Assembly: GCA_043822705.1 (NCBI GenBank) | Contig: JBDRBK010000017.1 | Span: 1 to 22,485 of the forward strand | Length of the DNA stretch: 22,485 nucleotides | Reading direction: 5' to 3' | DNA from: Fidelibacterota bacterium | GTDB taxonomy: Bacteria > Fidelibacterota > Marinisomatia > Marinisomatales > TCS56 | Shown: piece after piece, positions 1-20,383 of the stretch | Numbering within the stretch: the first letter of the stretch is position 1 | Layout: every line of letters starts with the position of its first letter | Position numbers and translations under genes: made by a program | The notes under the pieces: generated by a model | What the model saw: only the letters and a program-made list of their open reading frames with translations | What the model was told of the DNA's origin: nothing | The model's database searches: none

Positions 1-603
1 CAAAATGAAAGTTGGACAACACCCCAGATTGTTCCCTTCAGCGGGCAAGGTACTGAACCTTACTATGATGATGTGCCGGTTGTATCACCGGATAATACAA
101 AACTATTCTTCTTGTCCAAAAGACCAATCGGGTATGCATCAACAAACCGGGAACATATCTGGTATGTGGAAAGAACATTAACAGGATGGTCAGAACCAAC
201 ACCCTTACCGCAGAATATAAATTCAACTCCGGATATTCACTGGCAAATATCTGTAACAAACGATGGGACATTATATTTTGGCGCGTTTGGCGGATTGTAC
301 TACTCGAGTCTCATCGATGGAGAGTATGCAAATCCAGAACCGTTCCAAATAATTAATGATTTTGGAAATGTAACATGTCCCTTTATGGCTCCTGATGAAT
401 CGTATATTATTTTTTGCAAAATAGTTGAAGGAAGAGGTTCTTTATATATCAGCTTTAATGACATGAATGGACAGTGGCTGCAGCCTCAACCATTAAACAA
501 CATTCCGGAAGTAACGTCATTCGTTTCCCGGGATGGTAAATACCTTTTTGCTTTCTATAATTGGATTTCAGCAGAGATTATTGAAGACCTGAGACCTGAA
601 TAG
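1..603 (+). CDS. TolB-like/PD40 (WD40-like) beta-propeller protein, 5'-partial
   Basis: Frame 1 is open from base 1 (QNESWTTPQIVPFSGQG...). PD40-type repeats: PVVSPDNTKLFFLS, WSEPTPLPQNIN, PFMAPDESYIIF, FVSRDGKYLF. Confidence 0.75.
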   Translation, partial: QNESWTTPQIVPFSGQGTEPYYDDVPVVSPDNTKLFFLSKRPIGYASTNREHIWYVERTLTGWSEPTPLPQNINSTPDIHWQISVTNDGTLYFGAFGGLYYSSLIDGEYANPEPFQIINDFGNVTCPFMAPDESYIIFCKIVEGRGSLYISFNDMNGQWLQPQPLNNIPEVTSFVSRDGKYLFAFYNWISAEIIEDLRPE

Positions 604-662
604 AATAAAGAGTTTATTAAAGCGCAGCAAATTAAAATAATTTGAGCCAAGGAGAAGACGCA

Positions 663-2198
663 ATGTTTGCTATTATTGATAATTATAAAACGTTTTTCAT
701 TGTCTTACTATTGGTATTCATTAGCATGTCCTGTTCGAAAAATCCTGCGGAAATTCAGAATACACCACAGGATAATTTCACTGCAAACAATCTCAGTATA
801 ACAGAAATAATTGTTGGTAGCTCAAACACTACCGGTAAATATCGGATGATAACATTTGACATAAAATGGGAGAATATTTGGACAAGCAGCGCTGCCGATA
901 ATTGGGACGCGGTTTGGGTTTTCATTAAATATAAAGCAGGCAGCGGAGAATGGAAACCTGCGACGCTGGCGACCCTTTCCACAGAACATATAGCGCCTGC
1001 CGAATCTTTCGTAACCCCGTCCTCGGACGGCAAAGGAGTATATATTTACCACGATGGAGATGGAACCGGCGCTCTTAACACCTCAGAGATATCCTTAAAA
1101 TGGAACTACGGACTGGATAACGTCGATGATGATGCTGTTGTAAATATAAAAGTTTTTGGAATAGAGATGGTCTATATTCCCGAAGGCAGTTTTTATGCCG
1201 GAGATAACGGATATAGTTTAGCGTCATTCACAAAAGGCTCAGACGATAACCGGCCTTGGTTCATTACCAGCGAAAACGCTATCGAAGTAACGAATACGGC
1301 ATCCAATGGTTATTATTATAAGTCCTCAAAGGATTATTGGAATGAAACGTGGAATGCCAGTGAAGACGTATCAGGCACAGCATTTACTATTCCAGCCGAT
1401 TTCCCAAAGGGGTATCGAGCAATATATTGTATGAAATATGAACTGACTCAACAGCAATATGCAGATTTTTTAAATACGTTAAATAGCACGCAATCTTTAA
1501 ATAGATACGATAGAGCTAATTTTAACAGGTTTGGATACACAATATCAGAAAATAATGGAGTGTATTCAACAGCTCACCCGGATAGGGCCTGTGGTTTTTT
1601 AAGTCCCGCAGATGGATTCGCTTATGCCGACTGGGCTGGAATAAGACCAATGAGCGAATTAGAGTTTGAAAAGATCTGCCGGGGAAGCGGCAACCCGGCG
1701 ATCAGCGGAGAATTCGCATGGGGAACAACGAATGCTAAAAACGCCCTATCGGTTAATGGAACGGAGAGCGATAGGGAATATATAACGACAAATGGAGCAA
1801 ATAGTTATTATCTGGAGTCCAATTTTCAACCTCAGTTTCCTTTGCTTGTCGGTATATTTGCCGGGCCGGGAAAATCGAGAGAACAAAACGGCGCTGCATA
1901 TTACGGTGTTATGGAAATGAGTACAAATTTAAGCGAAACATGCGTTTCTATTGGAAATGAATATGGAAGAGTATTTACATATCGAAACGGGGATGGTCAA
2001 TTGGCTGCGGATGGTTTTACAGATGAAAGTGACTGGCCGCTTAGCAATGGGATAGGCACTGGTTACCGGGGGGGCTGTTTTGGAAGAGAGAAGTATTTTA
2101 TGCAAGTCTCGAATCGCGAGGATGCTACTGTAGCTATAGATACAGATCACAGACATATCCCATTGGGTTTTCGAGGCGTCCGGACTGTATTGTTTTAG
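663..2198 (+). CDS. Lipoprotein with C-terminal FGE-sulfatase (SUMF1-like) domain
   Basis: ATG at 663 after GGAG. Hydrophobic signal then SMSC lipobox. FGE-type motifs EMVYIPEGSF, MKYELTQQQYADFLN, RPMSELEFEK, YGVMEMSTNLSE, GFRGVR. Confidence 0.8.
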   Translation: MFAIIDNYKTFFIVLLLVFISMSCSKNPAEIQNTPQDNFTANNLSITEIIVGSSNTTGKYRMITFDIKWENIWTSSAADNWDAVWVFIKYKAGSGEWKPATLATLSTEHIAPAESFVTPSSDGKGVYIYHDGDGTGALNTSEISLKWNYGLDNVDDDAVVNIKVFGIEMVYIPEGSFYAGDNGYSLASFTKGSDDNRPWFITSENAIEVTNTASNGYYYKSSKDYWNETWNASEDVSGTAFTIPADFPKGYRAIYCMKYELTQQQYADFLNTLNSTQSLNRYDRANFNRFGYTISENNGVYSTAHPDRACGFLSPADGFAYADWAGIRPMSELEFEKICRGSGNPAISGEFAWGTTNAKNALSVNGTESDREYITTNGANSYYLESNFQPQFPLLVGIFAGPGKSREQNGAAYYGVMEMSTNLSETCVSIGNEYGRVFTYRNGDGQLAADGFTDESDWPLSNGIGTGYRGGCFGREKYFMQVSNREDATVAIDTDHRHIPLGFRGVRTVLF

Positions 2199-2957
2199 TA
2201 GTCGAAACTTTGCTATCTGAAAATGGAGGAAATAATATATCCAAAATATTAGTCATTGGGGTAATTCCACTGGTAATTATTCATACTTTTGGTCGTCAAC
2301 GCAAAGATTCAGTCATGAAGACTGGGACTGGAAGTTTTTTTATAGAAATTCAGAAAATGTATGTGGCGGTGGCCAGAAGTATTTGGGGCAATCGATTCGC
2401 TGAATTAAAGATAATTAATAGCGCTAACTATTGTATGGAGATAATGGTTTGTGTTGTTCGACAAATTTTTAGTTTGGCGAGTTTTCAGAATATTATCGAG
2501 AAGTGAAAGCGAATCACTTCGAAAATCGCCATATCTCATACCTTGCCCGTTAATTAAATCCAAGAGTCTTTACAATGCATCAGGCCGTCTGCATTACAAG
2601 CTGAATAATCATTCCACTAAATGCTTAACCGGTTTCAGCTTTCCATCAAGCCGTTTGACAGAAGATTAAGATGCTTTTTCAATTCACGGAAATAATCGGC
2701 AGGATCAGTCCGGTTGTTCGGCAATCCGGTCAAATCATATAGGTGGATGTATAAATGGCTTGCCGGTTATCGCGAAGGAGTATTCAAAACCGGAAAATGA
2801 TTTTTTCAGTTACCAGAATCATTGCCGCATATACTTAAATTTCTAAATATAATATGAAAATGATATTACCATGCGGTCGTTTGATGACACTGACTGATTG
2901 ACCGACTGTCACACAATATGCAGCAATAAACCGCGCTCAGAAAAGGCCCTCCCCTAA

Positions 2958-2994
2958 AAAAGAAAAGTCCTCCGGTTGGTGGGCTTTTTCTTTT
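2958..2994. terminator. Putative intrinsic terminator-like hairpin
   Basis: AAAAGAAAAGTCC...GGGCTTTTTCTTTT imperfect inverted repeat with A- and T-tracts. Confidence 0.45.
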
Positions 2995-3232
2995 GTGCAA
3001 ATACATCTTCTACAAATAGCAGGCAATTATTGTTTTGCAGGCGAAGTTGGAACCCGCACTGGGAAGGAGTGGTCATCATTACATTAAGAGTTTTATCGAT
3101 TTGCTATGACCGGTAATGTTATCAGCGATTAGAATCTTATCGGTCATTGATAATATTCCGGTTGCATTAGTTAAATACAATGCTTAGACTTAGATTAACG
3201 GAGGGATACATTAAATGTGCAGAGGATTTTTT

Positions 3233-3315
3233 CCGACCGAGTTTCTCACATATAGGCTGTTACTCCACCGGGAGTCACTAAGTGCTCCAAGACGGATAAG
3301 CTTAAGCCAGAAGGG
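3233..3315 (-). mobile_element. Putative orphan IS110-family left-end non-coding region (no transposase follows)
   Basis: Minus strand reads TTGGAGCACTTAGTGACTCCCGGTGGAGTAACAGCCTATATGTGAGAAACTCGGTCGG, with a hairpin at 3271-3288. Resemblance to IS110 upstream ends is from memory and unverified. Confidence 0.4.
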
Positions 3316-3336
3316 ATAGTGTAATTAGATAATTGT

Positions 3337-4674
3337 ATGTATAAGATAATTAATATTCTGGCAATAGTTTTAATGATAGTGATCAATTCATGCCAAGATT
3401 CGACTGGTCCTAAAATAGAAGATGATGATTTGTACCTTGTTAAAATTTATGACCTGCAAATACCAGAAGAAATATTAGATCAGGAACCTTTTGAGATTGC
3501 ATTCTCAGCTTATATTGGTGATAATAATTGTTATTCCTTTTTTGAAATAGATACTATATGTGATCCTGGCAAAATCGATATTTATATTTGGGGAAAATAC
3601 GATTCGACATCCACCTGCACAACCGCGTCACAAATAATCGAAGATCAAATATTAACATTTAAACCACCTTTTACAAATCCTTTGATAATCAATTTTTACC
3701 AGCCGGATGACACAATTATCACAGATACAATTAATGTTCTATATATGTCTCAAGATCCAGATTGGATAAACTACACAAAGAACTCAAGCGTAATACCAAG
3801 CAATAATATTTATGCTTTGGCAATTGATTTGGATGATAATCTCTGGGTTGGAACAGAGGATTATGCGACCGGTATATTTAGATTTGATGGGATTGAGATT
3901 TTGGATTTTTCTGATCGAAGATTCGAACTAAACCAATACTATGTTGAATCAATTACTGTCGACAGGCATGGTAATATTTGGGTAGGATCATTCCTTCCTC
4001 CGGAAATTTCAAAATATGACGGCTCAGATTGGCAGGTATTTAATTTTAACCCTGAGATAGATCATGATGATGTGCACGCACTTGTTGTTGATCTAGACAA
4101 TAATTTATGGATTGGAACCCATCATTCTCATCTTTACCGTTTTGATGGCAATACCTTCACAGAAATTGACACAGTTAATTCAATTTATTCTGGATACATC
4201 GAGGCCTTAGATATTGACTCACAAAACAATCTTTGGTTTGGTTATTATCTTTGTACGGTTGGTAAGTATAACGACGATGAATTATTAATATTCAACGATT
4301 CCGATTTAGGCCTCTCGCAATATTACAATTTTATCAATGATTTGAAAATTGACAGCCACGACAGAGTTTTTATAACCACAAGCGGTAAGGGCCTATTGGT
4401 ATTTAATAATGATACTTGGGCTAATTATGACATGTCTAACTCAAATATCCCTACAAATAATTTGTATGATTTATGTATTGATTCTCAAGATAACATTTGG
4501 GTAGCTTCTGGGGTAGGATTATTAAAATTTGATGGGATTGAGTGGGTATTATATAATTATGAAAATTCAGGTTTAATAGATAATAGCATAACCTCTTTAG
4601 CTATTGACAGTAATGATCAAATATGGATCGGCAACTATACATACGGCATAACATTATTTAAAAACGGTAATTAA
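3337..4674 (+). CDS. Lipoprotein with two-component-regulator-propeller (Reg_prop) beta-propeller repeats
   Basis: INSC lipobox. Repeated blades IYALAIDLDDNLWVGT, SITVDRHGNIWVGS, ALVVDLDNNLWIGT, SLAIDSNDQIWIGN. Very AT-rich. Confidence 0.85.
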   Translation: MYKIINILAIVLMIVINSCQDSTGPKIEDDDLYLVKIYDLQIPEEILDQEPFEIAFSAYIGDNNCYSFFEIDTICDPGKIDIYIWGKYDSTSTCTTASQIIEDQILTFKPPFTNPLIINFYQPDDTIITDTINVLYMSQDPDWINYTKNSSVIPSNNIYALAIDLDDNLWVGTEDYATGIFRFDGIEILDFSDRRFELNQYYVESITVDRHGNIWVGSFLPPEISKYDGSDWQVFNFNPEIDHDDVHALVVDLDNNLWIGTHHSHLYRFDGNTFTEIDTVNSIYSGYIEALDIDSQNNLWFGYYLCTVGKYNDDELLIFNDSDLGLSQYYNFINDLKIDSHDRVFITTSGKGLLVFNNDTWANYDMSNSNIPTNNLYDLCIDSQDNIWVASGVGLLKFDGIEWVLYNYENSGLIDNSITSLAIDSNDQIWIGNYTYGITLFKNGN

Positions 4675-4927
4675 TTTCTCATTAAACGTGTATTCCTTCT
4701 AACAACCACTATACCGGTGCTTTTTGGGCTTGGAAACTGGAGATTGTTAACTGGAAATTTTAAAATGAATTGCACCGGTCAGGTTAGCCAATAAGCGGCT
4801 GACGGCATCATACATCTGCAATTTTAGCATCGGATTGAGAGACATTATATCTGGCTACTGGTGAGTAACATTAAGTATAATCAGCAGTGATACCTGATTG
4901 GTAAGTTTGAATCAAGAATCGGAAATC

Positions 4928-6409: not shown

Positions 6410-6841
6410 ATGAAAATCGACGTCCGTAAAGTCAATACCACTATCGAAAAGGACCAGGCCCTGGCGCTCCGCCGGGAGGTATTCATTATCGAGCAGCAGG
6501 TACCGGAAGCGATTGAGATCGATGAATTCGAAGACAGCGCCCGGCATGTGCTGGCGCTGGTGGACGACCGACCGGCCGGGACAGCCCGTTGGCGCAGCAC
6601 CGCGGAGGGGATTAAGCTGGAACGGTTCGCCGTTAAAAAAGAATTTCGCTTCCAGGGCGTCGGTTCGGCACTGGTCAATTATCTGCTGGAACAGATGCCG
6701 GATGAAAATTTATTCCTGCTGCATGCTCAGGTATCGGTAATGCCATTCTATGCGAAATTTGGTTTCCGGCCGGTTGGGGAAATATTCCATGAGGCTTCTA
6801 TCCCCCACCGGAAAATGATTTTTAATCGGATGGTAAAATAA
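6410..6841 (+). CDS. GNAT family N-acetyltransferase (ElaA/YjcF-like)
   Basis: LRREVFIIEQQVP, ERFAVKKEFRFQGVG, LHAQ, FYAKFGF, EASIPHRKM. Confidence 0.9.
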   Translation: MKIDVRKVNTTIEKDQALALRREVFIIEQQVPEAIEIDEFEDSARHVLALVDDRPAGTARWRSTAEGIKLERFAVKKEFRFQGVGSALVNYLLEQMPDENLFLLHAQVSVMPFYAKFGFRPVGEIFHEASIPHRKMIFNRMVK

Positions 6842-6869
6842 AAAAGCCCGCACCAGGCGGGCTTTTTTT
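6840..6869. terminator. Bidirectional intrinsic terminator between convergent GNAT and porin genes
   Basis: AAAAAAGCCCGC-ACCAG-GCGGGCTTTTTTT: GC stem flanked by A- and T-tracts. Confidence 0.9.
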
Positions 6870-6885
6870 CCGATCATAACTCTTT

Positions 6886-7980
6886 TTAATGTAAATACAT
6901 CTGCCACATGAAATGGATCGTCAGCGGATCGACCGGATCCGATCCCTGGGCGGTTTTATAAGTCAGGCCCAGTTTGAACAGGGTGTCCATCCAGTGCTCC
7001 GGATCGGGAGCATAATTCAGGCCGAGCGAAATATTGGCCACGGCATCGTCATCGGCGTCGGTATTAACGTCCCAGGTTTCATAACGGCCGCCGACTTCAA
7101 TTTTATCGCAGATTTTGTACGCTCCCAACAGGGCAATGCCCGACTGGGTGATATCGGTGGCAGCGTCAGCGACGCGGGCGAAATCGATCTTGCCGCGGAT
7201 ACCGCCCTTCTGATAAACCTTGGGCGTGTAATAGGCGAATCCGGTCCAGGAAGATTTGTTGATCCGGTCTTCGTTGGCCGGACCGAAATGCAGACCGGTA
7301 CTGATCGCATCGCCCAGTTTCATTTCACCCATGAAATCCAGTTGCGGCAGCGTACCGGTATCGGTTCCGGAGCCACTGGAGGATGAATTATAGGGTTTGA
7401 AGTTCAGACTGCCGCTGCCGTTGTGGGCGGTTACCTCATATTTAAATTGGCTGATTTTACCCGCCACTGACATCCCGTAGGTCCGGTAATCGGAACGTCC
7501 TAGGGCACTGGCCCAGTTGCGGGCGACAATCGAGCGCTCGATAAAATCGATACTGGTGTGTCCGGTCCGGCCGCCGGCCTGCGAACCGGCACCGATGAAG
7601 CGCCCCATGCTCAGTTTCAGATTGTCGGAGAAATCGTAGTCCAGCCGGGCATCGAGCAACGTCGGCGTTCCGGCGGCTTCGAATTGCACGAAAGCGGTGG
7701 CCGGACCGTGACTCATCTTGCCCCGCAGCCGGGCACGGCGGATACCAAATCCCAGTTGAGTCGATTTGTAGGCGTCGACCGTACCGGCAGGGATCGTATA
7801 GATGGCGCCGGTGCTGGTATTGAAGGCATAGGATTGGGCCGTTGTCACCGCAGGATGGTCGTAGGTCGTGTATGATCCCCAGGATTGGAGACTGAACTGG
7901 AACGCAGCCTGGGCCGGCAACGCCCCCACCACTACCAGGCTCAGAATAATCAGAATGATTACATTGTATTGTTTTTTCAT
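6886..7980 (-). CDS. Outer-membrane porin, OprO/OprP (phosphate-selective porin)-like
   Basis: Signal peptide (..LPAQA). FGIRRARLRG, LLDARLDY, IDFIERS and GRYE motifs typical of Porin_O_P-like barrels. Amphipathic C-terminal strand. Confidence 0.75.
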   Translation of the reverse strand: MKKQYNVIILIILSLVVVGALPAQAAFQFSLQSWGSYTTYDHPAVTTAQSYAFNTSTGAIYTIPAGTVDAYKSTQLGFGIRRARLRGKMSHGPATAFVQFEAAGTPTLLDARLDYDFSDNLKLSMGRFIGAGSQAGGRTGHTSIDFIERSIVARNWASALGRSDYRTYGMSVAGKISQFKYEVTAHNGSGSLNFKPYNSSSSGSGTDTGTLPQLDFMGEMKLGDAISTGLHFGPANEDRINKSSWTGFAYYTPKVYQKGGIRGKIDFARVADAATDITQSGIALLGAYKICDKIEVGGRYETWDVNTDADDDAVANISLGLNYAPDPEHWMDTLFKLGLTYKTAQGSDPVDPLTIHFMWQMYLH

Positions 7981-7982
7981 TT

Positions 7983-9266
7983 TTAGGCCACTCTTTTAAC
8001 TTGATTACGTTCGAATTTCCAGACATAAATCAACATGAATGCTGCAAAAATAGCGCCAAATATCCAGAAGTAGAAAGCGGCGTCCCAACTGTACTTTTCA
8101 ATCAGAAATCCGGTGCCCACACCGGTGAGGCTGGCGCCCACATAGCCCATGGCATCGATGAAACCAGTGACCGATGAAGCAGCTTTGCGGGAACCCAGGT
8201 CGGCGGGCAAAGCACCTACGATCAGCACGTGGGGACCGAAGGTAAGGAAACCGATAAACAGCAGCAGTATCAGGCTGATCACCCAGTTTTCACCTGGTAC
8301 GATCCGATAGAGGTAGCAGAACACCGCCAGCAGCAACAGCATGATAACGGCCACCGGGGCGCGCCGGTTTTGAAACAACTTGTCCGAAGCCCAACCAGCG
8401 ACAATGGCACCCAGTCCACCAGCCACCGGGAAGGCCACCGCCTTGTACGCGGCCAGGGAAATAGTAGCACCCTGTTCCTCGAACATATAGGTGGGCGCCC
8501 AGCTCATAAATCCGTAGCGCACGATATTCAGGCCAAACAGACCGAAGGCGGCAAACCAGATATAGGGATTGCCCAGGGTGATTTTCAGCGTCTCTTTGAA
8601 ACCGATATGTTCGTCGGCAATGGCTTCGGTTCGGGCGATGCCCTGTTCCTGTTCTTCCAGACTGGGCAGACCGATTTCCTCCGGCGCATTGCGGGCCCGC
8701 AGGTACCAGTGAATGGCCAGTCCGGCCATGATCAGCGAAGGCAGCCAGAAGGTGAAGCGCCAGTTGAAATATTTGATGATCGTCCCCGCCAGCACCCACG
8801 AGAGCGCCCCGCCCAGGATGTAACTGGTGCCCAGCCGTCCGGATATTTTTCCTCTGACCTTGTGAGGGAACCAGTTGGCCATGGCCTTGACGGTCGGTCC
8901 CCAGCCCATTGATTGAAAATAACCATTCAATCCCCAGATCACAACCATCAGGCCGATAATGCCGCCGGTGAAACCGAAAAAGATATTCAACACGGCCGAT
9001 GTGAGCAGGCCGACGGTGATGATCCGACGGGAATTCAGTTTATCGCCCAACTGGCCGTTCACAAACTGCCCGATTGCATACATGGCAAACAAGGCACTCA
9101 GGACAACACCCAGGTTGGTTTTGGTCAGATTGAATTCTTCCATGATGGAAGGTAACGCCACGGAAATATTCACCCGTCCCAGATAGAAGGCGGCATAGGT
9201 GACCCACATGAGCCAAAACATTTTCTTTTGCCACTGCGCTATCCGCGGTTTAATTGAATCATTCAT
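7983..9266 (-). CDS. MFS transporter, organophosphate:Pi antiporter family (GlpT/UhpC/PgtP-like)
   Basis: YAAFYLGRVNIS, GQFVNGQLGDK, NGYFQSMGW, NWFPHKVRG, RYGFMSWAPTY, GWASDKLFQNRRAP, GFIDAMGYVG. About 12 TM segments. Start could be ATG 9266 or TTG 9305. Confidence 0.9.
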   Translation of the reverse strand: MNDSIKPRIAQWQKKMFWLMWVTYAAFYLGRVNISVALPSIMEEFNLTKTNLGVVLSALFAMYAIGQFVNGQLGDKLNSRRIITVGLLTSAVLNIFFGFTGGIIGLMVVIWGLNGYFQSMGWGPTVKAMANWFPHKVRGKISGRLGTSYILGGALSWVLAGTIIKYFNWRFTFWLPSLIMAGLAIHWYLRARNAPEEIGLPSLEEQEQGIARTEAIADEHIGFKETLKITLGNPYIWFAAFGLFGLNIVRYGFMSWAPTYMFEEQGATISLAAYKAVAFPVAGGLGAIVAGWASDKLFQNRRAPVAVIMLLLLAVFCYLYRIVPGENWVISLILLLFIGFLTFGPHVLIVGALPADLGSRKAASSVTGFIDAMGYVGASLTGVGTGFLIEKYSWDAAFYFWIFGAIFAAFMLIYVWKFERNQVKRVA

Positions 9267-9321
9267 GGTAATGTCTCGATCTTTTTTTGATAATTGTATT
9301 TTCAAATTTAACGTCGGGGGC

Positions 9322-9738
9322 TTACTTGTGGTTTTTTACCCGGTCCTTTATCCCCGTGGACGACTGCGGCGGGTAATAGGGTATAACGATCACCCGCCCA
9401 TTCAGGCTGTTCATCACTTCATGGGCCTCCTGGATGGCTTCGTCGCTGTGGCTGGAACTTTCCATGAGGATGTCCGGCCGGATCTTTTTAACATTGGGCA
9501 GCGGCGAATAGGTTTCCTGGGGTACTACCAGGTCCACATATTTGATGGCCGCGGCCAGGTCCATTCTTTCTTCAAAGGACAGCACCGGCCGGGCTTTCTT
9601 CTCCATGACCGCCTCATCGGTAAGAATGCCCACGATGAGTTTTCCATCCTCGCCGGCGATCGCCTTGGCATTTTTCATCATCAGTAAATGTCCCTTATGG
9701 ACGATATCCAGTACGTAGTAGGAATAAACGACTTTCAT
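9322..9738 (-). CDS. HxGH-type cytidylyltransferase (TagD-like; resembles the domain often fused to PEP mutase)
   Basis: ATG at 9738 after GGAG. MKVVYSYYVLDIVHKGHL, LIVGILTDEAV, FEER, SSTGIK. Confidence 0.85.
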   Translation of the reverse strand: MKVVYSYYVLDIVHKGHLLMMKNAKAIAGEDGKLIVGILTDEAVMEKKARPVLSFEERMDLAAAIKYVDLVVPQETYSPLPNVKKIRPDILMESSSHSDEAIQEAHEVMNSLNGRVIVIPYYPPQSSTGIKDRVKNHK

Positions 9739-9740
9739 TA

Positions 9741-10649
9741 TTAACTCCGCGTAATTTCGTTGAAAAGGTTCCAGGCGCGACGATAATCCTCGAAAGTATC
9801 TACGTCGATCCAGGTCCGCCAAATGTCCAGGCCGACGATTTTTTCGCCCCGCCGGATCAACTCCTGTATGAAATCTATGAACGATGCCGTCCGGATTTGG
9901 AGTGCATCGTGAAATGGTGCCTCGGGATCCGTGCCGTAATAATCACACGCCTCTCGTAACGATTCGGCGGCGTGGGACGACAGTTTTGCCAGTCCGATGA
10001 ATTCGGTAACCGCTTCGGAATCGGAAGCTTCCGTGGTCACGGCATCCACTCGAAGAGCGTTATCAGTTTCGGTGATGCTGACCAGTTCCGGGGGATTGGG
10101 GTGGGCTTCGCGACTGTCCTGATAATGTTGTTTCCAGCCCCGGTCGATGACCAGCGTGGTATGGTCGGGTGATTCCGCCAGTTTTTTCAGAATTTCACCA
10201 TCGAACAGGATGTCCCCGTAAATTACCACTGTCTCCTTCTGAATAAATTCCAGGGCGGAAAAAAGCGAGACCAGACTGCCGCTGGTTTGATAGTCATCGT
10301 TGTCGTAGTACTGCAATCCGGGGTAATCAATCCGGTCTTTCTGGAAACCACGGACTACGGCGATATCGGTAATCCCTGCCGATCGGAGCATTTCCACCTG
10401 CCACTGTAGAATTGTTTTGCCCTTGATATCGAGCAGCGCTTTCGGGATCGACTCGGTCAGCGGAAAAAGATGTTTGTCTTTTCCGGCCGCCAGGATCACG
10501 GCCCGCAAACGGGAATCCGGTCGCCGGGAGGTCCGCTGGATTTCTTCGTCCAGCCGGGCACGAACCCATTCGGAAAAATTGATTTTCTTGGATTGGAGCC
10601 AGGATTCGTGGCGGTCGGATATCTTGATTGTTTTGGCAATTTTGGGCAT
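9741..10649 (-). CDS. LicC/PntC-like NTP transferase with N-terminal ribbon-helix-helix-like extension
   Basis: Residues 1-45 (KTIKISDRHESWLQSKKINFSEWVRARLDEEI) have an RHH-like strand-helix-helix pattern. They are followed by AVILAAG..PLT..PKALL, YGDILF, EFIGLAK and WIDVDTFEDY. Confidence 0.8.
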   Translation of the reverse strand: MPKIAKTIKISDRHESWLQSKKINFSEWVRARLDEEIQRTSRRPDSRLRAVILAAGKDKHLFPLTESIPKALLDIKGKTILQWQVEMLRSAGITDIAVVRGFQKDRIDYPGLQYYDNDDYQTSGSLVSLFSALEFIQKETVVIYGDILFDGEILKKLAESPDHTTLVIDRGWKQHYQDSREAHPNPPELVSITETDNALRVDAVTTEASDSEAVTEFIGLAKLSSHAAESLREACDYYGTDPEAPFHDALQIRTASFIDFIQELIRRGEKIVGLDIWRTWIDVDTFEDYRRAWNLFNEITRS

Positions 10650-10665
10650 AACAAACTAATGGTGC

Positions 10666-10681
10666 GTATGTACGTGCATAC
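10666..10681. promoter_or_regulatory. Candidate operator palindrome GTATGTACGTGCATAC
   Basis: 14/16 self-complementary. Lies between the predicted -10 and the ATG at 10649. Confidence 0.6.
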
Positions 10682-10682
10682 A

Positions 10683-10711
10683 AAATTATGTCGAAAGCCA
10701 GTTTCAGTCAA
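10683..10711 (-). promoter_or_regulatory. Sigma70-type promoter for the minus-strand operon
   Basis: TTGACT (10711-10706), 17-bp spacer, TAATTT (10688-10683) on the minus strand. Confidence 0.65.
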
Positions 10712-10774: not shown

Positions 10775-10963
10775 CGTCCGACTGAAGAATGGAGCCCCAT
10801 GGGCAAAGCCCGTGGTACCTCCAAAAAATACCCTCCTACGCCAAGGCTTCGGAGGGTTATCCGCAGCTGGCGACATCCGCCGTAGCAACAATACATCATT
10901 TTGGGATGATGCTTCAGCATTCATCCACGGGCAGAGCCCGTGGTTTTATGCGTAGGCGGATAA
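10775..10963. mobile_element. Small non-coding palindromic element (REP/MITE-like, possibly a non-autonomous IS200/IS605 derivative)
   Basis: Two near-identical hairpins CCATGGGC-AAA-GCCCGTGG (10797-10815) and CCACGGGC-AGA-GCCCGTGG (10925-10943). Internal hairpins ACCCTCC..GGAGGGT (10830-10857) and CATCAT..ATGATG. Boundaries approximate. Confidence 0.6.
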
Positions 10964-11063
10964 AGTTTACCCGGACTGCCTCCGGTCATTGAAGCTATAC
11001 GATTCTATTTGCTTGGCGCACCCGGTGGAATAAAGCCGGACATATTCAAGCTTGCCGCGATGG

Positions 11064-12326
11064 CTATTCCCAGAATTGACTGAACTGTCCTTCGGTTTTA
11101 GGTTTGTACTGCACACCCTCGTAAATTGCCAGATCGTCGAGACTGGAATCAAATTTTTCCACCGGTGTGCGCCAGTCACCGAATCTTTCTTCCAGATAGG
11201 TTTCGACATCGGAAGGAATTTTATACCGGTAATTCTCCCAATCAATGGTATCCAGCTGGTCGTGGAAGCAGGCCCGCACTCTTTTCACGGTGTGGCTGTC
11301 CATCCAGTAATAGTACTCATCAAAGCGATACTTGACGAAAATATCCAGATGCAATTCCTTGTGCTTTAATAGTCGGAGAAATTTTTTAGCCACCAATTTC
11401 ACTTTAATGGCGCGCAGACTGCCGGGTAGACGTCCGGTGTAATTATGGCGGATGCTGGTCCAGTATTTTCGCGGAAGCTTATGGATATTATCCAACAGCC
11501 GCTGCGAATCCCGGGCATCGATACAGATATCGGCATCGTGATCCCAGGGCAACAGATCGCCGTTCCGGATTATGCCCAGCAGGGTGCCGCAGTCAAGCCA
11601 GTAACGGATATTATATTCATCAAGAAAAGCCACGGTATCCGCCAGAATCATTTTAACGGCGGGCAGGTTTTTGCCGGTGAGAGCGACCCCCTTCCGGAAG
11701 CGTTTTGGTTTGGTCCAGCGGGTCTTGCGGGGGAGCTTGAACAACTCTTCTTTAGAAATAATTGCGCCGTCATCGGAGGTGGTGTGCCAGTACTGTACCG
11801 GTGTTTTCCAGTCGCCGTACCTTTCAGTTAAATAGGCCGCGGTATTACCGGGAATGGGGAAGGATACGGAGCCGATCTGCAGGGATCCCAGGTTTGAAAA
11901 ATAATCGGCGGAAATTTGCTTGCAGGCGATACCGCTGGCCCAACGGATATGGTCCCCATGGGGAAATTTAAGGGTGATATTCAACCCGAATTTATGGCGG
12001 CGGGTAAATCGTGGCACCAGGTAAATCTTGGTAACGTTGCCGTCGATCCATTCATAACCGGTGCGATCGTATTTGAACGTCATTATATACCAGGGTGAGA
12101 AAGCCGCTTTCAACTTGAGAATTGCTTCATAATCCCGGCTGAAGATTCCAACTGTTTGATTCTTCAGGTTTGGGAGAATCCGCTGATCCCGGTACAAACT
12201 CAGCAGTGTTCCCGAATCCAACCAGAAGGGGATTCCGTTCTTTTCCAGAATATTTTTCGTTTTCAGGAGCAATCGGAGCGCTCCCTTAGCGTTGTAATTA
12301 CGTGGCGTCTTTATTTTTGTAGTCAA
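11064..12326 (-). CDS. LicD-family phosphotransferase with two tandem LicD domains
   Basis: TTG start after GAGGGG. Domain 1: FWLDSGTLL..R and YLTERYGDWKTP. Domain 2: YWLDCGTLLGIIR..LLPWDHDAD, LDIF and YLEERFGDWRTP. Confidence 0.85.
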   Translation of the reverse strand: MTTKIKTPRNYNAKGALRLLLKTKNILEKNGIPFWLDSGTLLSLYRDQRILPNLKNQTVGIFSRDYEAILKLKAAFSPWYIMTFKYDRTGYEWIDGNVTKIYLVPRFTRRHKFGLNITLKFPHGDHIRWASGIACKQISADYFSNLGSLQIGSVSFPIPGNTAAYLTERYGDWKTPVQYWHTTSDDGAIISKEELFKLPRKTRWTKPKRFRKGVALTGKNLPAVKMILADTVAFLDEYNIRYWLDCGTLLGIIRNGDLLPWDHDADICIDARDSQRLLDNIHKLPRKYWTSIRHNYTGRLPGSLRAIKVKLVAKKFLRLLKHKELHLDIFVKYRFDEYYYWMDSHTVKRVRACFHDQLDTIDWENYRYKIPSDVETYLEERFGDWRTPVEKFDSSLDDLAIYEGVQYKPKTEGQFSQFWE

Positions 12327-12518: not shown

Positions 12519-14366
12519 ATGGCACGATCGACCTACAAACGCATTATCGGTCTGGTATTCCAATACTGGCCCAGCCTCCTGGTAGCTACACTGGCGGCCT
12601 TTGTCTTTGTAGCCCTCAAGGGCGCATCGGTCTGGTTGACTGCCTCGCTCATCAACAACCTGCTGACTGATTTCGATGAACTGCTCCATGAGAGCGAACG
12701 CATCCTTGCCAGTCAGGCGCCCAGCATCAATGATCAGTTGAAGCTGTGGACCAACCAGTTGATCCTGCGCCCCACTCCGGTCGAGACCCTCAAGGTTCTT
12801 TGTATAACGATTCTGGTTACCTTCATTGCCAAGAATATCTTCCTGTACATCAAGAATATTTTACTTTCGATTATCCAGTACAAATTGATCACCCGGTTGC
12901 GGGAGGATTTGTATCAGCATTACCACACCCTTTCCCTGTCCTTCTTCAATTCGCGGAAATCAGGTGTATTATCTTCCATTCTGATCAACGACATCGCCAA
13001 CATGCGCCGCACCTTCGCTACCAGCTTTCACAAATTGTTTGTGGAACCGATCAATATCCTGTTTATGGTCGGTCTGCTTTTTGTGATTAGTTGGAAGCTC
13101 ACTTTAATCGCCGTACTGGTAGTCCCGTTGGCCGGTGTCAGTATAATTTCGGTAGGACGCAGCATTCGCCGTAAATCGCATCGCACGTCCGTTAAAATAG
13201 CCGGGATTATGAACATCATCAATGAGACTTTCACGTCCATGCGGATCGTCAAAGCCTTCGTCATGGAAAAATACGAGGTCGGCCGCTTCAAACGTGAAAC
13301 CGGCAAGTATTACCAACTGCTCATGCGGCGGGCCCGTCTCCGTCATTTATCTTCCCCGATCACAGAAACGCTGGGCGTCCTTATCGGTGTCACTATCCTA
13401 TGGTTCGGGGGCCTGGAGGTGTTCAGTCATCAGGGTATCACGGCGGAAGATTTTATCCGCTTCGTCATGATCATGTTTTCCATCCTGACCCCGATTAAAT
13501 CGCTGAGTCAAGTCAACATTGATATTCAGATCGGCATCGCATCCGCCGATCGAATCTTTAAGATTTTAGACACGGAACCTTCCATCAGGGAAGTCCCGGA
13601 CGCAACCGAGAAAACGGCATTCGACACCAGCATCAGTTACAATAGTGTTTCCTTTCACTATCAGGAGGGCGACGAGCGCGTTCTCAGCGATGTCAGCTTT
13701 ACACTGCACAAGGGGCAGGTGGTGGCCCTGGTGGGGCCCAGTGGCGCCGGTAAATCCACCATCGCGGACCTGATCCCGCGTTTTTATGACGTGGAGTCGG
13801 GATCGATCACGATCGACAACATTGATATTCGTCAGATGACCCTGAATTCCCTGCGCAGTCTCATGGGAATTGTAACTCAGGATACCATTCTCTTCAATGA
13901 TACCATCCGGGCCAATATTGCCTACGGTCTGCCGGATGTACCACAGGAAGCTATCCAGGCCGCTGCCGAAACGGCCAATGCGTTGGAATTTATCGAACGG
14001 TTGCCCAACGGATTCGATACGATGGTTGGTGAAAAAGGAGTAAAATTTTCCGGCGGGCAACGACAGCGTCTGGCAATCGCACGTGCGGTTCTGAAAAATC
14101 CACCAATTCTAATCCTGGACGAAGCCACCTCGTCGCTGGATACGGAGTCAGAGCTGAAAGTACAAACGGCAATCGAATCGCTGATGCGGGACCGCACTAC
14201 GCTGGTCATTGCGCACCGGCTGTCAACGGTCCAGAACGCCGACAAAATTATAGTGCTGGAACACGGTCGAATAGTCGGCTCCGGTACCCACAATGAGTTA
14301 ATAGAAATTGACGGACTGTACAAATATCTGTATTCGATTCAATTTCAAGATCCCCGACTGAAGTGA
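12519..14366 (+). CDS. ABC exporter, fused TMD-NBD, MsbA/PglK-like glycolipid flippase
   Basis: N-terminal TM domain, Walker A GPSGAGKST, signature FSGGQRQR, Walker B ILILDEATS, H-loop IAHRLST. Confidence 0.92.
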   Translation: MARSTYKRIIGLVFQYWPSLLVATLAAFVFVALKGASVWLTASLINNLLTDFDELLHESERILASQAPSINDQLKLWTNQLILRPTPVETLKVLCITILVTFIAKNIFLYIKNILLSIIQYKLITRLREDLYQHYHTLSLSFFNSRKSGVLSSILINDIANMRRTFATSFHKLFVEPINILFMVGLLFVISWKLTLIAVLVVPLAGVSIISVGRSIRRKSHRTSVKIAGIMNIINETFTSMRIVKAFVMEKYEVGRFKRETGKYYQLLMRRARLRHLSSPITETLGVLIGVTILWFGGLEVFSHQGITAEDFIRFVMIMFSILTPIKSLSQVNIDIQIGIASADRIFKILDTEPSIREVPDATEKTAFDTSISYNSVSFHYQEGDERVLSDVSFTLHKGQVVALVGPSGAGKSTIADLIPRFYDVESGSITIDNIDIRQMTLNSLRSLMGIVTQDTILFNDTIRANIAYGLPDVPQEAIQAAAETANALEFIERLPNGFDTMVGEKGVKFSGGQRQRLAIARAVLKNPPILILDEATSSLDTESELKVQTAIESLMRDRTTLVIAHRLSTVQNADKIIVLEHGRIVGSGTHNELIEIDGLYKYLYSIQFQDPRLK

Positions 14367-15406
14367 GTTTCTATTACATCAGCAATCAGATTTATCAGTT
14401 TCTGTATTCCGAGCCCGTTTATCGGGAATTGGGCGGAACCTTCCTGACCTGGAAATACCGTACTTATCTGCGGCTGAAGAAACAATTTTTTCTGAATCGC
14501 TTAAAAAATCCCCAAGATCCGTACCCGCCGATCCGGCATGTGAACCGCTACAACATCACCGGCGACGACGGCGTACTTATTGCCAACAGCCTGCACCGGA
14601 TCGGGTATGATCGAACCAGGCATAAGCTGATACTTATGTACCATGGTACCTCTGATAAAATCCCCCGGGTATCCGCCCAGGTGGCCGGCCAGTTCGACTA
14701 TTACTTCCTGACCGGACCGAAGAACGAACAAAAACTGGCCGGGGCAGCCGGGATTAATTGGGATTCGGAGCGGCTGATTCGAACTGGCAACTGGATGTTT
14801 GACAGTATTGTAAACAATAACTATGACGTCGACGAAATTCGACGAAAATATGATATTACGGATACCTCCCGGCCGACAGTTTTATATGCGCCGACCTGGA
14901 GTTACGGCGGCGGTACGCTATTTAACAATTTTGAAAATTTCATAACAACCATTCCCGAGCAATATAACCTGATTATCCGGCCGCATTATGCCGAAAGAAA
15001 GTATATCCCGAAATTAGCTCGGATGGTGCCGGCGAAGTTTAAACAAAGGGTCAGTTTTGTCAATTCGGCCAATATTTTTAAATACCATTTCATGGAGAAC
15101 CTGTTTATTGCCGACCTGCTGCTGAGCGATACATCTTCGATGGTATATGAATATTTAATCATGCGGCGCCCATTAATTATCTGCGCTACCGAATCGCCGG
15201 AAGTTTCACAAAATGATTATGGGACGAATATTGCCGATCAGGTCGACAAGTATCGGCCGGGCGATGATGTTATGAAAATGATCAAGAAAAATCTGGATGA
15301 TAAATCAATCCGCAATGATATGGATAAGCTGCTCCATCATTTCTTTTACTTTAACGATGGAAAATCGACACAGCGTTGTATTGATTTTTTAAAGACTGTG
15401 TCATAG
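14363..15406 (+). CDS. CDP-glycerol:glycerophosphotransferase (TagF-like) family protein 1
   Basis: GTG start overlaps the ABC stop (GTGA). MYHGTSDK, VLYAPTW, IRPH, SDTSSMVYEY, DGKSTQR. Confidence 0.8.
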   Translation: MSFYYISNQIYQFLYSEPVYRELGGTFLTWKYRTYLRLKKQFFLNRLKNPQDPYPPIRHVNRYNITGDDGVLIANSLHRIGYDRTRHKLILMYHGTSDKIPRVSAQVAGQFDYYFLTGPKNEQKLAGAAGINWDSERLIRTGNWMFDSIVNNNYDVDEIRRKYDITDTSRPTVLYAPTWSYGGGTLFNNFENFITTIPEQYNLIIRPHYAERKYIPKLARMVPAKFKQRVSFVNSANIFKYHFMENLFIADLLLSDTSSMVYEYLIMRRPLIICATESPEVSQNDYGTNIADQVDKYRPGDDVMKMIKKNLDDKSIRNDMDKLLHHFFYFNDGKSTQRCIDFLKTVS

Positions 15407-15456
15407 GCGGAGCACTATTGGTTTTTTTTATGCAACCGAAATAAACTTGTGCCACT

Positions 15457-16584
15457 ATGATTAAACCAGTTAAAATTGTTTTTGATACATTTCACCTTTA
15501 CCATTTACCGCAGTTCGATCCAATAATCGAATTGTTACGGCAAGATAATCGCTTCGAAATATATCTTACCTGTTCTTCCTCCATCGATAAAGTCGAATAT
15601 CAATTAGCACAAAAAATAATTCGGAATCGGGGCCTGAAGTTCATCGCCGCCGATTCAGAACAGCAACGGAAAGAAAAAATCCGTGGATTAAATCCAGCGG
15701 TATTCATTTGCGGGTGGTCCCGGTATCCGATCAGTGAATACGTTCCTGATTCCACCCTGGTGGGAATGGTGTACCACGGAATCGGCGTTAAACCATCCTA
15801 CTGGCGCGATAATAGCAAACGACTTGATATCAGGTTTGTCGAAGGCAGTTTTCGTGAAAAACAACTAAAGGATTATGGGATACAAACTGAACTGGCCATA
15901 GCCGGTTATGCCAAACTCGATCCCCTTTTCAATGGCAGTTTACCACCCCGGGATCAATTATTAAGGGAATGGGGGCTGGCACCGGAAAAACCGACCCTGT
16001 TATATGCCCCGACTTTTTATCCCAGTTCCCTTGAAAAATTTGGTGAAAGACTGGCGCTGGATACCCGGGAATTCAATCTGATAATCAAGCCGCATATGTG
16101 GGTATATTTTCTGGATCGTTTTGGCGGGGTTAATCTCAAACCCCAACGACAATTGTTGAAGAAATTTGAAAAATACCGTCACATCTACATCCCGCCCCCG
16201 GAGGTCTACAATATCGTGCCATTCTATCATGCCAGCGATCTGTTGATCACCGAGGCTTCTTCGACCATCTATGAAATGATGGCACTAGATAAACCGGTAA
16301 TACTGTGTAAATTTTTCAAACTCAAATTGGGACACCGAATCTTCAAAAATCGCCTATATAAACGGCGCCTCGACAAGAATATGAGCATGGAATTGAATGA
16401 CTTTTGCCTGGATTTGGCAAAACCCGGTATGTTGAAATCTGTAGTAAGACAGGCACTCAGTGGAATTGATCCGAATCCAGCCTTAAGAGAGAAATATAAA
16501 GCAGAAATGCTGTATCAATTAGATGGCAAAGCGGCGGAACGAATCCGTGCAGTTATTCTTAAAAAATTATCAATCATCAATTGA
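15457..16584 (+). CDS. TagF-like glycerophosphotransferase family protein 2
   Basis: VYHGIG, GYAKLD, LLYAPTF, IKPH, TEASSTIYE, DGKAAERI. Confidence 0.82.
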   Translation: MIKPVKIVFDTFHLYHLPQFDPIIELLRQDNRFEIYLTCSSSIDKVEYQLAQKIIRNRGLKFIAADSEQQRKEKIRGLNPAVFICGWSRYPISEYVPDSTLVGMVYHGIGVKPSYWRDNSKRLDIRFVEGSFREKQLKDYGIQTELAIAGYAKLDPLFNGSLPPRDQLLREWGLAPEKPTLLYAPTFYPSSLEKFGERLALDTREFNLIIKPHMWVYFLDRFGGVNLKPQRQLLKKFEKYRHIYIPPPEVYNIVPFYHASDLLITEASSTIYEMMALDKPVILCKFFKLKLGHRIFKNRLYKRRLDKNMSMELNDFCLDLAKPGMLKSVVRQALSGIDPNPALREKYKAEMLYQLDGKAAERIRAVILKKLSIIN

Positions 16585-16804
16585 TTTATTCCAAATAATT
16601 AATGGCAATAACTATTGAAGATCACGCAATCGGTTGCTGGCAATAGTATGAAATTGATATCACTGACCAAAGATCGCCCGTTTGTTTTAGCACCGGCGTT
16701 GATCGTAAAGGACCGCAACAAAGTCTCCGAGTGTATCCGGGTAGAGAAACTCCAGTTGTTGAAATGGATTCCGGAATAACCGCAGGCGCTTATCGGTGAA
16801 TTGA

Positions 16805-17410
16805 ATGAGTGGCAAAATTAAACTGCAAGGCCGGTATCGCCGAATCGCTGAAAAACTGTTAAAAAGGATCACCGGCGTCCTGTATAGCTGCGGCATTCCC
16901 TATTGGCTGGATTATGGCACCCTGCTGGGAATTGTGCGCGAACAGCGGCTACTGCCCTGGGACAGTGACATGGATATCTCGATTGCCAGAAAGGATCTTG
17001 ACCGGCTGCTGGCGAACCTGTGGCGATTCCGAATTCGCGGGTACAAAGTTCGTATCCGCTACCATCGCCAGGATGACCACCCGCTGAAAAAAGGATCAGT
17101 GCGCCTGATTAAAATTTTCAACCGTAAATACCTGGTAGCCCGAGGTGATGTGATGCTGGATATCTTTGTTAATACCAGAGTCGAAGAAGCTTACACCCTG
17201 GTAATGGGAATTAAAAACTATACCAGATTTTCCGTCCCGGCCCATTATTTCGACAATCTGGGCACGATCCGGTTTCGCGATCGTCCCTATTCCGTACCGG
17301 CTGAATATGAAGAATATCTCGCCTACCGCTACGGTGATTGGAGAACTCCCCGGGAAGATTGGAATTTCTACAAAGATGATTTAGCAATCAGCAACAGTGA
17401 TCAAACCTGA
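16805..17410 (+). CDS. LicD-family phosphotransferase
   Basis: YWLDYGTLLGIVRE..LLPWDSDMDI, LDIF, YLAYRYGDWRTP. Confidence 0.88.
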   Translation: MSGKIKLQGRYRRIAEKLLKRITGVLYSCGIPYWLDYGTLLGIVREQRLLPWDSDMDISIARKDLDRLLANLWRFRIRGYKVRIRYHRQDDHPLKKGSVRLIKIFNRKYLVARGDVMLDIFVNTRVEEAYTLVMGIKNYTRFSVPAHYFDNLGTIRFRDRPYSVPAEYEEYLAYRYGDWRTPREDWNFYKDDLAISNSDQT

Positions 17411-17437
17411 TACGCGGAATTCAGTAAGGGTCCACCA

Positions 17438-18463
17438 ACGAAATATCTATTTTTCATAACGAAACCTTATTCGGTGCCAATCCTGGAACCAATTCAGGAC
17501 TATATCGACGCTACCGGTATAGGTGTTGTTCGCTGGTTTGCCGCCAGTTCGGCCAGAAAAGTTGAACTTCCCGGCGAACAGTTAAAAAACACGCCCGAAG
17601 TAATCGATTATAATCCCGATGCCGTAATCGTCCCTGGTAATGTCGTACCCCATTTCTGGCCCGGTCTGAAAGTGCAGATATTTCACGGTCTCGGTGAGGA
17701 TAAGAAAGGTCATTACCGGATTACCGGTTTTTTCGATCTGTACTGCACCCCGGGTCCTTTCATCACCTCCCGGTTCGAAGCGCTGGCCCGCCGTCACCAC
17801 AACTTTCTGGTGCGGGAAACGGGCTGGCCCAAACTGGATCGCCTGGTGAATCCGCCGCCCCGCGCCGAACTGAAAAAACAAATGGGATTCGCGCCCGATC
17901 TACCACTGATCCTGTATGCCCCTACATTCAGCCCAAAATATTCATCCGCTGGCGAATTGGCCGGCGCCATCGGCCGACTACAGGGTCGTCCCTGGCAGTG
18001 GCTGATTAAATTCCATGACCTGATGGACAAATCGGTAATAGAAAACTATCGTAAGCTGGAATCAGGGTTGCTGCGAATCAGCACCGACGACGATATCATC
18101 CCCCTGTTGCAGGCCACCGACGTACTTGTTTCGGATACATCGTCAGTGACTTATGAATACCTTATGCTCGACCGTCCGATTATAACTTACCGGGCGGCGG
18201 TCCGTACGGATCAGGGCATCAATATTTTTGAACCGCTGCAACTGGAGGCGGCCGTCGAGAGTGCCTTAACCAATCCCGCCGCTTATCAGGAACAGCGAAA
18301 ACACTACCTGAACGATCTGCATCCTTACCGGGACGGTCAGTCATCTCGGCAGGTGCTTGAAGCAATCGAATGGGCGCTGGATGCTGACCGGCTGGAAAAC
18401 CTCCGCCGTAAACCGCTTAACCTGCTGCGCAAGCGACAGATACGAAAGATCGTGTCATGGTAA
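17438..18463 (+). CDS. TagF-like glycerophosphotransferase family protein 3 (start uncertain: ACG 17438 or GTG 17474)
   Basis: QIFHGLG, GWPKLD, ILYAPTF, IKFH, SDTSSVTYEY, DGQSSRQV. In-frame KYLFFITKPYS lies upstream of the GTG. Confidence 0.8.
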   Translation, partial: TKYLFFITKPYSVPILEPIQDYIDATGIGVVRWFAASSARKVELPGEQLKNTPEVIDYNPDAVIVPGNVVPHFWPGLKVQIFHGLGEDKKGHYRITGFFDLYCTPGPFITSRFEALARRHHNFLVRETGWPKLDRLVNPPPRAELKKQMGFAPDLPLILYAPTFSPKYSSAGELAGAIGRLQGRPWQWLIKFHDLMDKSVIENYRKLESGLLRISTDDDIIPLLQATDVLVSDTSSVTYEYLMLDRPIITYRAAVRTDQGINIFEPLQLEAAVESALTNPAAYQEQRKHYLNDLHPYRDGQSSRQVLEAIEWALDADRLENLRRKPLNLLRKRQIRKIVSW

Positions 18464-19548: not shown

Positions 19549-19622
19549 AAAAATCGAGGTTTGATTTGTTCCTGATTGTGGTTGTTGCGTGTTATCATTT
19601 TCCGCTAATTTGGTGACCAATT

Positions 19623-20363: not shown

Positions 20364-20383
20364 CAACAAATTGAGACTTTTCC

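Follow-up and report, generated by a model that had tools for sequence, protein, structure and literature searches.

Closest described systems

The Lic phosphocholine pathway consists of the permease LicB, the kinase LicA and the enzymes LicC and LicD. The Pnt pathway, with Ppm-Ppd and either PntC or a Fom1-type cytidylyltransferase (CyTase), activates a phosphonate with cytidine monophosphate (CMP) for surface transfer and is supplied by phosphoenolpyruvate (PEP) mutase; the words uptake, transport and scaveng- are absent from the main text of the report on it, which cites LicC and LicD (Rice et al. 2019, PMC6697681). Here, we describe by computational analysis a 22,485-nucleotide stretch of DNA from a Fidelibacterota bacterium (GCA_043822705.1, contig JBDRBK010000017.1, positions 1-22,485; hereafter, the window), in which four minus-strand genes encode a ribbon-helix-helix (RHH) domain joined to a PntC/LicC-fold domain (gene 1; 9741-10649, 302 aa), a stand-alone HxGH CyTase (gene 2; 9322-9738, 138 aa), a major facilitator superfamily (MFS) carrier of the OPA family (gene 3; 7983-9266, 427 aa) and an OprO/P-type outer-membrane porin (gene 4; 6886-7980, 364 aa). 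It is likely that this operon is a conserved, mobile salvage module, and its cargo is most likely a phosphonate.

The module is a variation on Pnt and Lic logic. It would share with the Pnt pathway the CMP activation of a phosphonate for surface transfer, along with LicD-like neighbours and PF01467 and PF12804 domains (PMC6697681), but its supply is predicted to come by import and not from PEP mutase, its activating enzyme belongs to a stand-alone clade outside the PepM-fused CyTases, and its degenerate PF12804 domain comes joined to a DNA-binding domain. The order of import, activation with cytidine triphosphate (CTP) and LicD transfer is that of the Lic pathway, whereas here the operon holds no kinase, LicA (PF01633) is unmatched in the 93% complete host genome, the carrier is an OPA-family MFS protein or PhnCDE, and the active enzyme is predicted to be of the HxGH type and not LicC. 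The Fom1 CyTase (5x3d; PMC9088020), which is the best solved relative of the HxGH enzyme, makes CMP-2-hydroxyethylphosphonate (CMP-HEP), the product predicted here, but is fused to PepM and serves an antibiotic (fosfomycin) pathway, whereas the HxGH enzyme stands alone. AepP provides a precedent for an OPA-family phosphonate permease, although it feeds catabolism and is likened to gene 3 by description and not by sequence (PMC8316502). Full-text searches of literature outside subscription papers returned the Pnt pathway, AepP and marine surveys, with no case of import-fed phosphonate tailoring and no description of an RHH-nucleotidyltransferase fusion. The literature considered counts producers by pepM and regards the uptake of phosphonates as the start of their breakdown.

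Operon composition and gene neighbourhoods

The starts and stops of all four open reading frames were verified, and the gaps between them are 2, 55 and 2 bp, which confirms the tight, co-oriented spacing reported in the initial annotation. By Pfam, gene 1 falls into PF12804, gene 2 into PF01467 and gene 3 into MFS_1. The operon has no kinase gene and no mutase gene, as had been stated before, and profile searches of the host genome (3.34 Mb, 93% complete, 6% contaminated) likewise returned no PF13714 (pepM), ppd or choline kinase over cut-off.

Gene neighbourhoods were surveyed at 160 HxGH loci (the 80 best among 85 genome loci, and 80 of 286 metagenome loci). The module genes co-occur across many phyla, and members of the HxGH family that are 58-87% identical were found in Marinimicrobia, Cloacimonadota, deltaproteobacterial lineages, Planctomycetota, Patescibacteria and Thermoplasmata. 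The full four-gene order is present at 12 of the 160 loci, so the proposed unit stands as a recurring association with HxGH and importer at its core, but not as a fixed block. After exclusion of 25 loci cut by contig ends, the remaining 135 had enough flank for an importer tally, in which an intact importer adjoins HxGH at 123 (57/67 genome loci and 66/68 metagenome loci), usually a non-GlpT MFS protein and sometimes PhnCDE.

Two further genes recur beside the module. An S-adenosylmethionine (SAM) methyltransferase is inserted at 22 of the 160 loci, alone or fused to an intact nucleoside triphosphate (NTP) transferase (examples: L046:9273-10004, L080:11166-11912; L048:8434-9945, L144:6449-7948), and possibly methylates the head group. 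Several bacterial and archaeal loci (L092:12469-12990, L096:4463-4990) have a NUDIX hydrolase beside the module that could clear excess CMP-conjugate.

Proposed import in place of PEP mutase

An exchange between mutase and importer is captured by one pair of loci, G046 (L219) and L158, whose upstream flanks (6,413 bp) are 96.4% identical and whose downstream flanks (1,286 bp) are 91.9% identical. In the interval, G046 carries CyTase-pepM, ppd and an iron-dependent alcohol dehydrogenase (Fe-ADH) gene (4,042 bp), and L158 carries RHH-NTP transferase, HxGH, PhnD, PhnC and PhnD-E genes (4,989 bp), with an HxGH gene of the gene 2 type in the slot that CyTase-pepM occupies in G046. Scars of the same kind were found elsewhere: a truncated CyTase-pepM lies directly before HxGH and MFS in L188 and in L204/L205 (one organism), and Fe-ADH remnants are present in L188 and L181. 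Seven pepM-positive Smithella-type loci retain an intact HxGH gene with the MFS gene reduced to a remnant of 41-46 codons (three loci) or undetected (four); an eighth, L083, keeps its MFS gene.

In the 75 distinct genomes searched (five loci from genomes already counted were omitted), pepM is present in 7 of the 56 with an intact importer, 7 of the 9 without one and 1 of 10 classed as truncated. The cassette swap and the pepM scars agree with the initial proposal that uptake replaces the mutase, but the replacement is not strict, and mutual exclusion of module and pepM was rejected on the 7 of 56 genomes that hold both. The two closest module-bearing relatives, G002 and G006, have both routes; the module would therefore serve as salvage beside synthesis in some genomes and as the sole supply in others. 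The divergent surface-polymer locus on the plus strand of the window is orthologous to loci of G002 and G006 that hold the pepM-ppd-Fe-ADH trio between an ABC gene and TagF3, and the window has no trio at that spot.

The HxGH cytidylyltransferase

Gene 2 is a predicted phosphonate:CTP cytidylyltransferase, judged from its sequence relationships and context. Its HxGH motif reads HKGH and its PF01467 match scores 56 bits, and its best match among PDB entries is the Fom1 CyTase 5x3d (E 8e-15), with the RfaE-like 5x9q at a nearly equal score; as Fom1 is barely ahead of the RfaE-like protein, sequence alone names no substrate. Against the TagD model TIGR01518, gene 2 scores 50.3 bits (cut-off 165.4). 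In a quick tree of 169 domain rows and 136 columns, whose deep branches are unresolved, the HxGH clade stands apart from TagD, RfaE and the PepM-fused CyTases; gene 2 and TagD fall into separate clades with SH-aLRT support of 99 and 98. The TagD motifs GDDW and RTxxISTT are replaced in gene 2, and at the position of HGDDW in PepM-fused domains the clade reads ESxSH. On score, clade and motifs, the identification of gene 2 as a plain TagD was rejected, and an origin as a split-off Fom1-type domain found no support in the quick tree.

Two variants of the enzyme were noted. At Cloacimonadota loci (L039:5275-6075, L080:9737-10537 and others), a 266-aa paralogue with HKGL for HKGH in its first domain lies beside a normal HxGH gene and is possibly a degenerate copy. 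Members of the same or a sister clade (L102:4571-5176, L103:2028-2612, P0246, P0248, P0258, P0260) carry short N-terminal extensions, one of which is of the MerR type by Pfam; these extensions may bind DNA, which suggests repeated recruitment of regulators.

Predicted importers and what they would carry

Gene 3, the predicted importer, scores 234 bits against the GlpT model TIGR00712 (cut-off 632.55) and 281 against TIGR00881 (cut-off 408), yet its best matches lie in the OPA family and its best solved relative is GlpT. It keeps both helix arginines of GlpT, whereas K80, W161, H165, Y266 and E299 are replaced (Gln for K80, Tyr for H165), with residue numbering and roles presumed as mapped on the alignment. 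The substitute pocket set is nearly fixed in 47 MFS neighbours down to 30% identity, so gene 3 has a pocket signature of its own, and a second carrier in the same genome retains R45, K80, W161, H165, Y266 and R269. Gene 3 is therefore not a plain GlpT.

These results bear on a reading in which the imported solute is a phosphate monoester (glycerol-3-phosphate, phosphoethanolamine or phosphocholine) from which a CDP-alcohol is made for TagF or LicD, the pepM swaps being exchanges of interchangeable cassettes. The locus does exchange unrelated head-group cassettes (inositol-type, LicD plus NTP transferase, pepM trio), and the kinship of gene 3 with GlpT, the inserted methyltransferase and the scarcity of TagD, whose cut-off is passed in just 2 of 45 module genomes and is not passed in the host, would all suit such a supply. 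TagD is, however, rare in the phylum anyway (11/151), the HxGH enzyme lies outside the TagD clade and lacks its motifs, and the MFS pocket is unlike that of GlpT in 47 of 47 family rows while the second carrier keeps the GlpT residues. The substitution by PhnCDE, the pepM scars and the decay of MFS with retention of HxGH are not predicted by monoester import either, and we regard it as unlikely.

PhnCDE replaces or joins MFS at six loci; three of these were scored for PhnC and PhnE, both of which passed their cut-offs each time, and PhnD did so at 1 of 5. At the cap position, which is Tyr in phosphite binders and Asp in the E. coli 2-aminoethylphosphonate (AEP) binder (PMC5700983), the module PhnD proteins have Ala or Ser and would therefore fit a neutral group larger than hydrogen. 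Phosphite, whose Tyr cap is missing, is an unlikely substrate, although the closest solved relatives of these PhnD proteins are phosphite binders. That kinship, together with the known roles of OprO/P porins, PhnCDE and an OPA-family AEP permease in catabolism (PMC8316502), could point to phosphorus nutrition or detoxification, with phosphonate or phosphite taken up for breakdown and the placement beside surface-polymer genes incidental. We hold this to be very improbable: LicD, CDP-alcohol or TagF-like genes are present at 38 of 49 long loci, phnJ was found in none of 45 pepM-less module genomes, and neither phnJ nor phnX nor phnW/aepZ passes its cut-off in the host (the search did not extend to phnA and phnZ).

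Gene 4 has a signal-peptide-like N-terminus and no direct Pfam match; its assignment to the OprO/P porins is borne out by Atlas features (0.97) and by model TM-scores of 0.75-0.79, and aligned PF07396 models reach the Atlas naming bar. The porin is a frequent partner, beside the module at 33 of the 160 loci, but it also occurs without the module, beside the ABC gene in G004 and G005 and after the pepM trio in G046; an obligatory role was rejected on these cases, and the porin is probably an older resident of the locus.

A probable regulator with a degenerate enzyme domain

The initial annotation counted two cytidylyltransferases in the operon and overlooked an N-terminal RHH domain in gene 1 and an operator-like palindrome ahead of it. 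Gene 1 is instead probably a transcription factor, an autoregulator in which the RHH domain is joined to a degenerate enzyme domain. The PntC/LicC fold spans residues 46-302 (Z 28.4, root-mean-square deviation 2.1, 226 residues aligned to 6pd1; Z 27.2 to 1jyk), an assignment in which Foldseek concurs. The pyrophosphate site of PntC is GXG(T/S)R, and the R15A variant leaves <10% of activity (Rice et al., PMC6697681); gene 1 has GKDKH in its place. In a set of 120 homologues (the 80 closest and 40 more distant), the loop Arg is found in 0 of the 80 closest, all 80 of which have Asp for the second Gly. A working CyTase that doubles as repressor, in an operon that activates two head groups, would explain why Lys70 of the PK motif is K in 120/120 homologues, why Asp146, Glu216 and Asp284 are nearly invariant, why the fold is intact and why the 40 more distant homologues all retain the Arg. 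The loss of the Arg and Gly in the closest homologues and the effect of R15A in PntC make such a bifunctional protein rather unlikely, as does the presence of an RHH gene at only 27 of the 160 module loci, which renders it dispensable for the chemistry.

Residues 1-43 are conserved in 116 of the 120 homologues. A model of this segment was compared with 48,161 chains, and the top rows were DinJ, CopASO, omega, ORF56, PutA52 and NikR; three of the titles state an RHH fold, and we take the remainder to be RHH as well. In the Atlas comparison the segment reached TM 0.77 to CcdA/RHH_12, below the naming bar. Alignment of the RHH domain against PDB sequences gave no match, Pfam matches were weak, no Foldseek match was significant, a viral fold search with gene 1 returned generic nucleotidyltransferases only, and a homodimer prediction (score 0.20) gave no verdict. 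NikR and PutA are RHH regulators with a sensing or enzyme domain. Gene 1 resembles them in that an N-terminal RHH domain is followed by one of the ligand-binding or enzyme type, and in having a site at its promoter. It differs in that this second domain has a nucleotidyltransferase fold and is akin to PEP-mutase-like fusions.

The site is a 16-bp near-palindrome (10666-10681) just downstream of the -10 box, predicted to be the operator that the RHH protein binds over its own promoter. It is the sole site at ≤3 mismatches in the 3.34-Mb genome. The palindrome lies upstream of the unit at 23 of 24 loci with an RHH gene and 1 of 121 without, in a tally that leaves aside 15 loci without upstream DNA, uses a consensus derived from some of the counted loci and includes kin that are not independent. 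At three archaeal loci, where the order is MFS, RHH, HxGH, the palindrome stands ahead of MFS and therefore tracks the start of the operon and not the RHH gene.

The enzyme-like domain is a relative of the C-terminal domains of PEP-mutase-like proteins, with which it intermingles in a quick tree; its best 120 longer homologues are all fused to PF13714 proteins, and the ten of these fusions that were scored all fall below the PepM cut-off. These PEP-mutase-like proteins (P0393-P0512) form a large group with mostly degenerate PF12804 domains and EDNxFPKRCS-type motifs, and 0 of 120 match the canonical EDKXXXXXNS; motif-filtered surveys would drop this group, which may consist of uncounted mutases or have another activity.

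Predicted compound and acceptor

In 21 of the 22 pepM loci that are complete, ppd is followed by Fe-ADH; three further loci are cut by contig ends. PhpC-like Fe-ADH reduces phosphonoacetaldehyde to 2-hydroxyethylphosphonate (HEP; PMC8942020), and the PF01467 domain of Fom1 makes CMP-HEP (PMC6697681, PMC9088020); from these two activities, the swapped de novo trio most likely supplies CMP-HEP. Given a phosphonate cargo, HEP is accordingly our favoured substrate for the module, with another phosphonate a sizeable minority possibility.

The best candidate acceptor of the CMP-phosphonate is a double-LicD phosphotransferase encoded upstream on the same strand (11064-12326, minus). In 232 other genomes of the order, pepM is present in 25 of 28 with double-LicD and 12 of 204 without, and the four closest double-LicDs (50-56% identical) are all in pepM genomes. 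TagF3 was rejected as a phosphonate-specific acceptor, since 38 of the 67 genomes that have it lack pepM (29/67 with). The suggestion that neighbouring LicD/TagF-like enzymes receive the group is thus upheld for double-LicD but not for the TagF neighbour tested.

Proposed mechanism and its implications

The proposal builds on anatomy, co-occurrence, cassette swap, scars, motif loss and operator co-distribution, all demonstrated by sequence. HEP would cross the outer membrane through the porin and then enter through the MFS carrier, probably against phosphate, since OPA-family proteins exchange their solute for phosphate. The HxGH enzyme would convert HEP and CTP to CMP-HEP, for which no kinase is needed because a phosphonate already carries phosphorus. 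The adjacent double-LicD would transfer the group onto a surface glycan or glycolipid, a role that CDP-alcohol transferases may take in other lineages. The PntC-like domain would control DNA binding by taking up the CMP product as a ligand; such a sensor is suggested because Lys70 and three acidic residues are kept while the Arg of the pyrophosphate loop is lost. The fuller claim, of a mobile cross-domain system by which bacteria and archaea without PEP mutase import their neighbours' HEP for surface display and in which, in some lineages, a dead PntC-like domain senses CMP-phosphonate, is put forward tentatively, as a real possibility that falls somewhat short of an even chance.

Several points weigh against import of HEP for surface display. 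The clean swap is a single pair, involves PhnCDE and not MFS, has a metagenome contig on one side and may have run in either direction; the Smithella-type loci form a single clade; and nearly all genomes compared are incomplete metagenome-assembled genomes. Fe-ADH scores 246 against a cut-off of 424, the PepM-fused clade (support 96) excludes the HxGH clade, and median identities of HxGH to PepM-fused, RfaE and TagD domains (33%, 32% and 28%) do not discriminate. The inserted methyltransferase bears a weak likeness to phosphoethanolamine N-methyltransferases (best E 4e-9), which suits an amine cargo and leaves some probability for AEP or a phosphoester. For the sensor, the structural matches of the RHH domain reach Z of only 3.3-4.1 across the whole domain.

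If salvage for display holds, phosphonate uptake also serves building, imported phosphonate is shown on the cell surface, and strains switch between making and scavenging through the swap of one cassette. A class of phosphonate-coated organisms, and with it an anabolic sink in the phosphorus redox cycle, would in that case escape pepM-based surveys. The module offers three small proteins without assigned function (the HxGH clade, the OPA carrier and the RHH pseudo-enzyme with its 16-bp site), and it suggests that some PF12804 domains fused to PEP-mutase-like proteins are regulatory and not catalytic.

Further features of the window

A putative sigma70-like promoter (10685-10711, minus strand) consists of TTGACT (10711-10706) and CATAAT (10690-10685) with a short spacer of 15 bp. 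A scan for promoters with 16-18 bp spacers (8 hits against a shuffle mean of 8.8) does not list the pair because its boxes are 15 bp apart, and TTGACA or TTGACT stands at a similar distance ahead of homologous RHH genes. The sigma70 promoter of the initial annotation is in this sense plausible but non-canonical. The bidirectional intrinsic terminator that it also placed at the operon end was recovered at 6840-6868 (AAAAAAGCCCGC-N5-GCGGGCTTTTTT, arms 100% complementary), where it is common to the operon and a convergent GNAT gene. In one RNA run a 0.13 share of words was present, and short low-depth contigs covered the porin, MFS and other genes in part; such coverage is no proof of transcription.

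The divergent surface-polymer locus (12519-21607, plus strand) comprises an ABC exporter, four TagF-like proteins, LicD, an intact LicC-type NTP transferase and DUF1015. This second LicC-type enzyme (19623-20363) has an intact Arg, and in the relatives' loci examined it accompanies TagF4 and DUF1015 where the pepM trio is missing; TagF4 and the second NTP transferase of the window both belong to this pepM-less locus type, and another donor is probable for them. Across the order, the slot after the ABC exporter (L243-L253) holds interchangeable head-group cassettes, namely an inositol-phosphate-synthase-like gene with a CDP-alcohol transferase, LicD with an NTP transferase, or the pepM trio.

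Between the operon and the double-LicD gene, a palindrome-rich intergenic element (10781-10970), which we take to be REP- or IS200/605-end-like, recurs as a 95% copy on contig C40, and public runs contain look-alikes of it. The segment at 1-4900 has a GC content of 0.34-0.42, against about 0.50 elsewhere in the window, encodes FGE-sulfatase-like and beta-propeller proteins, and is possibly a separate acquisition.

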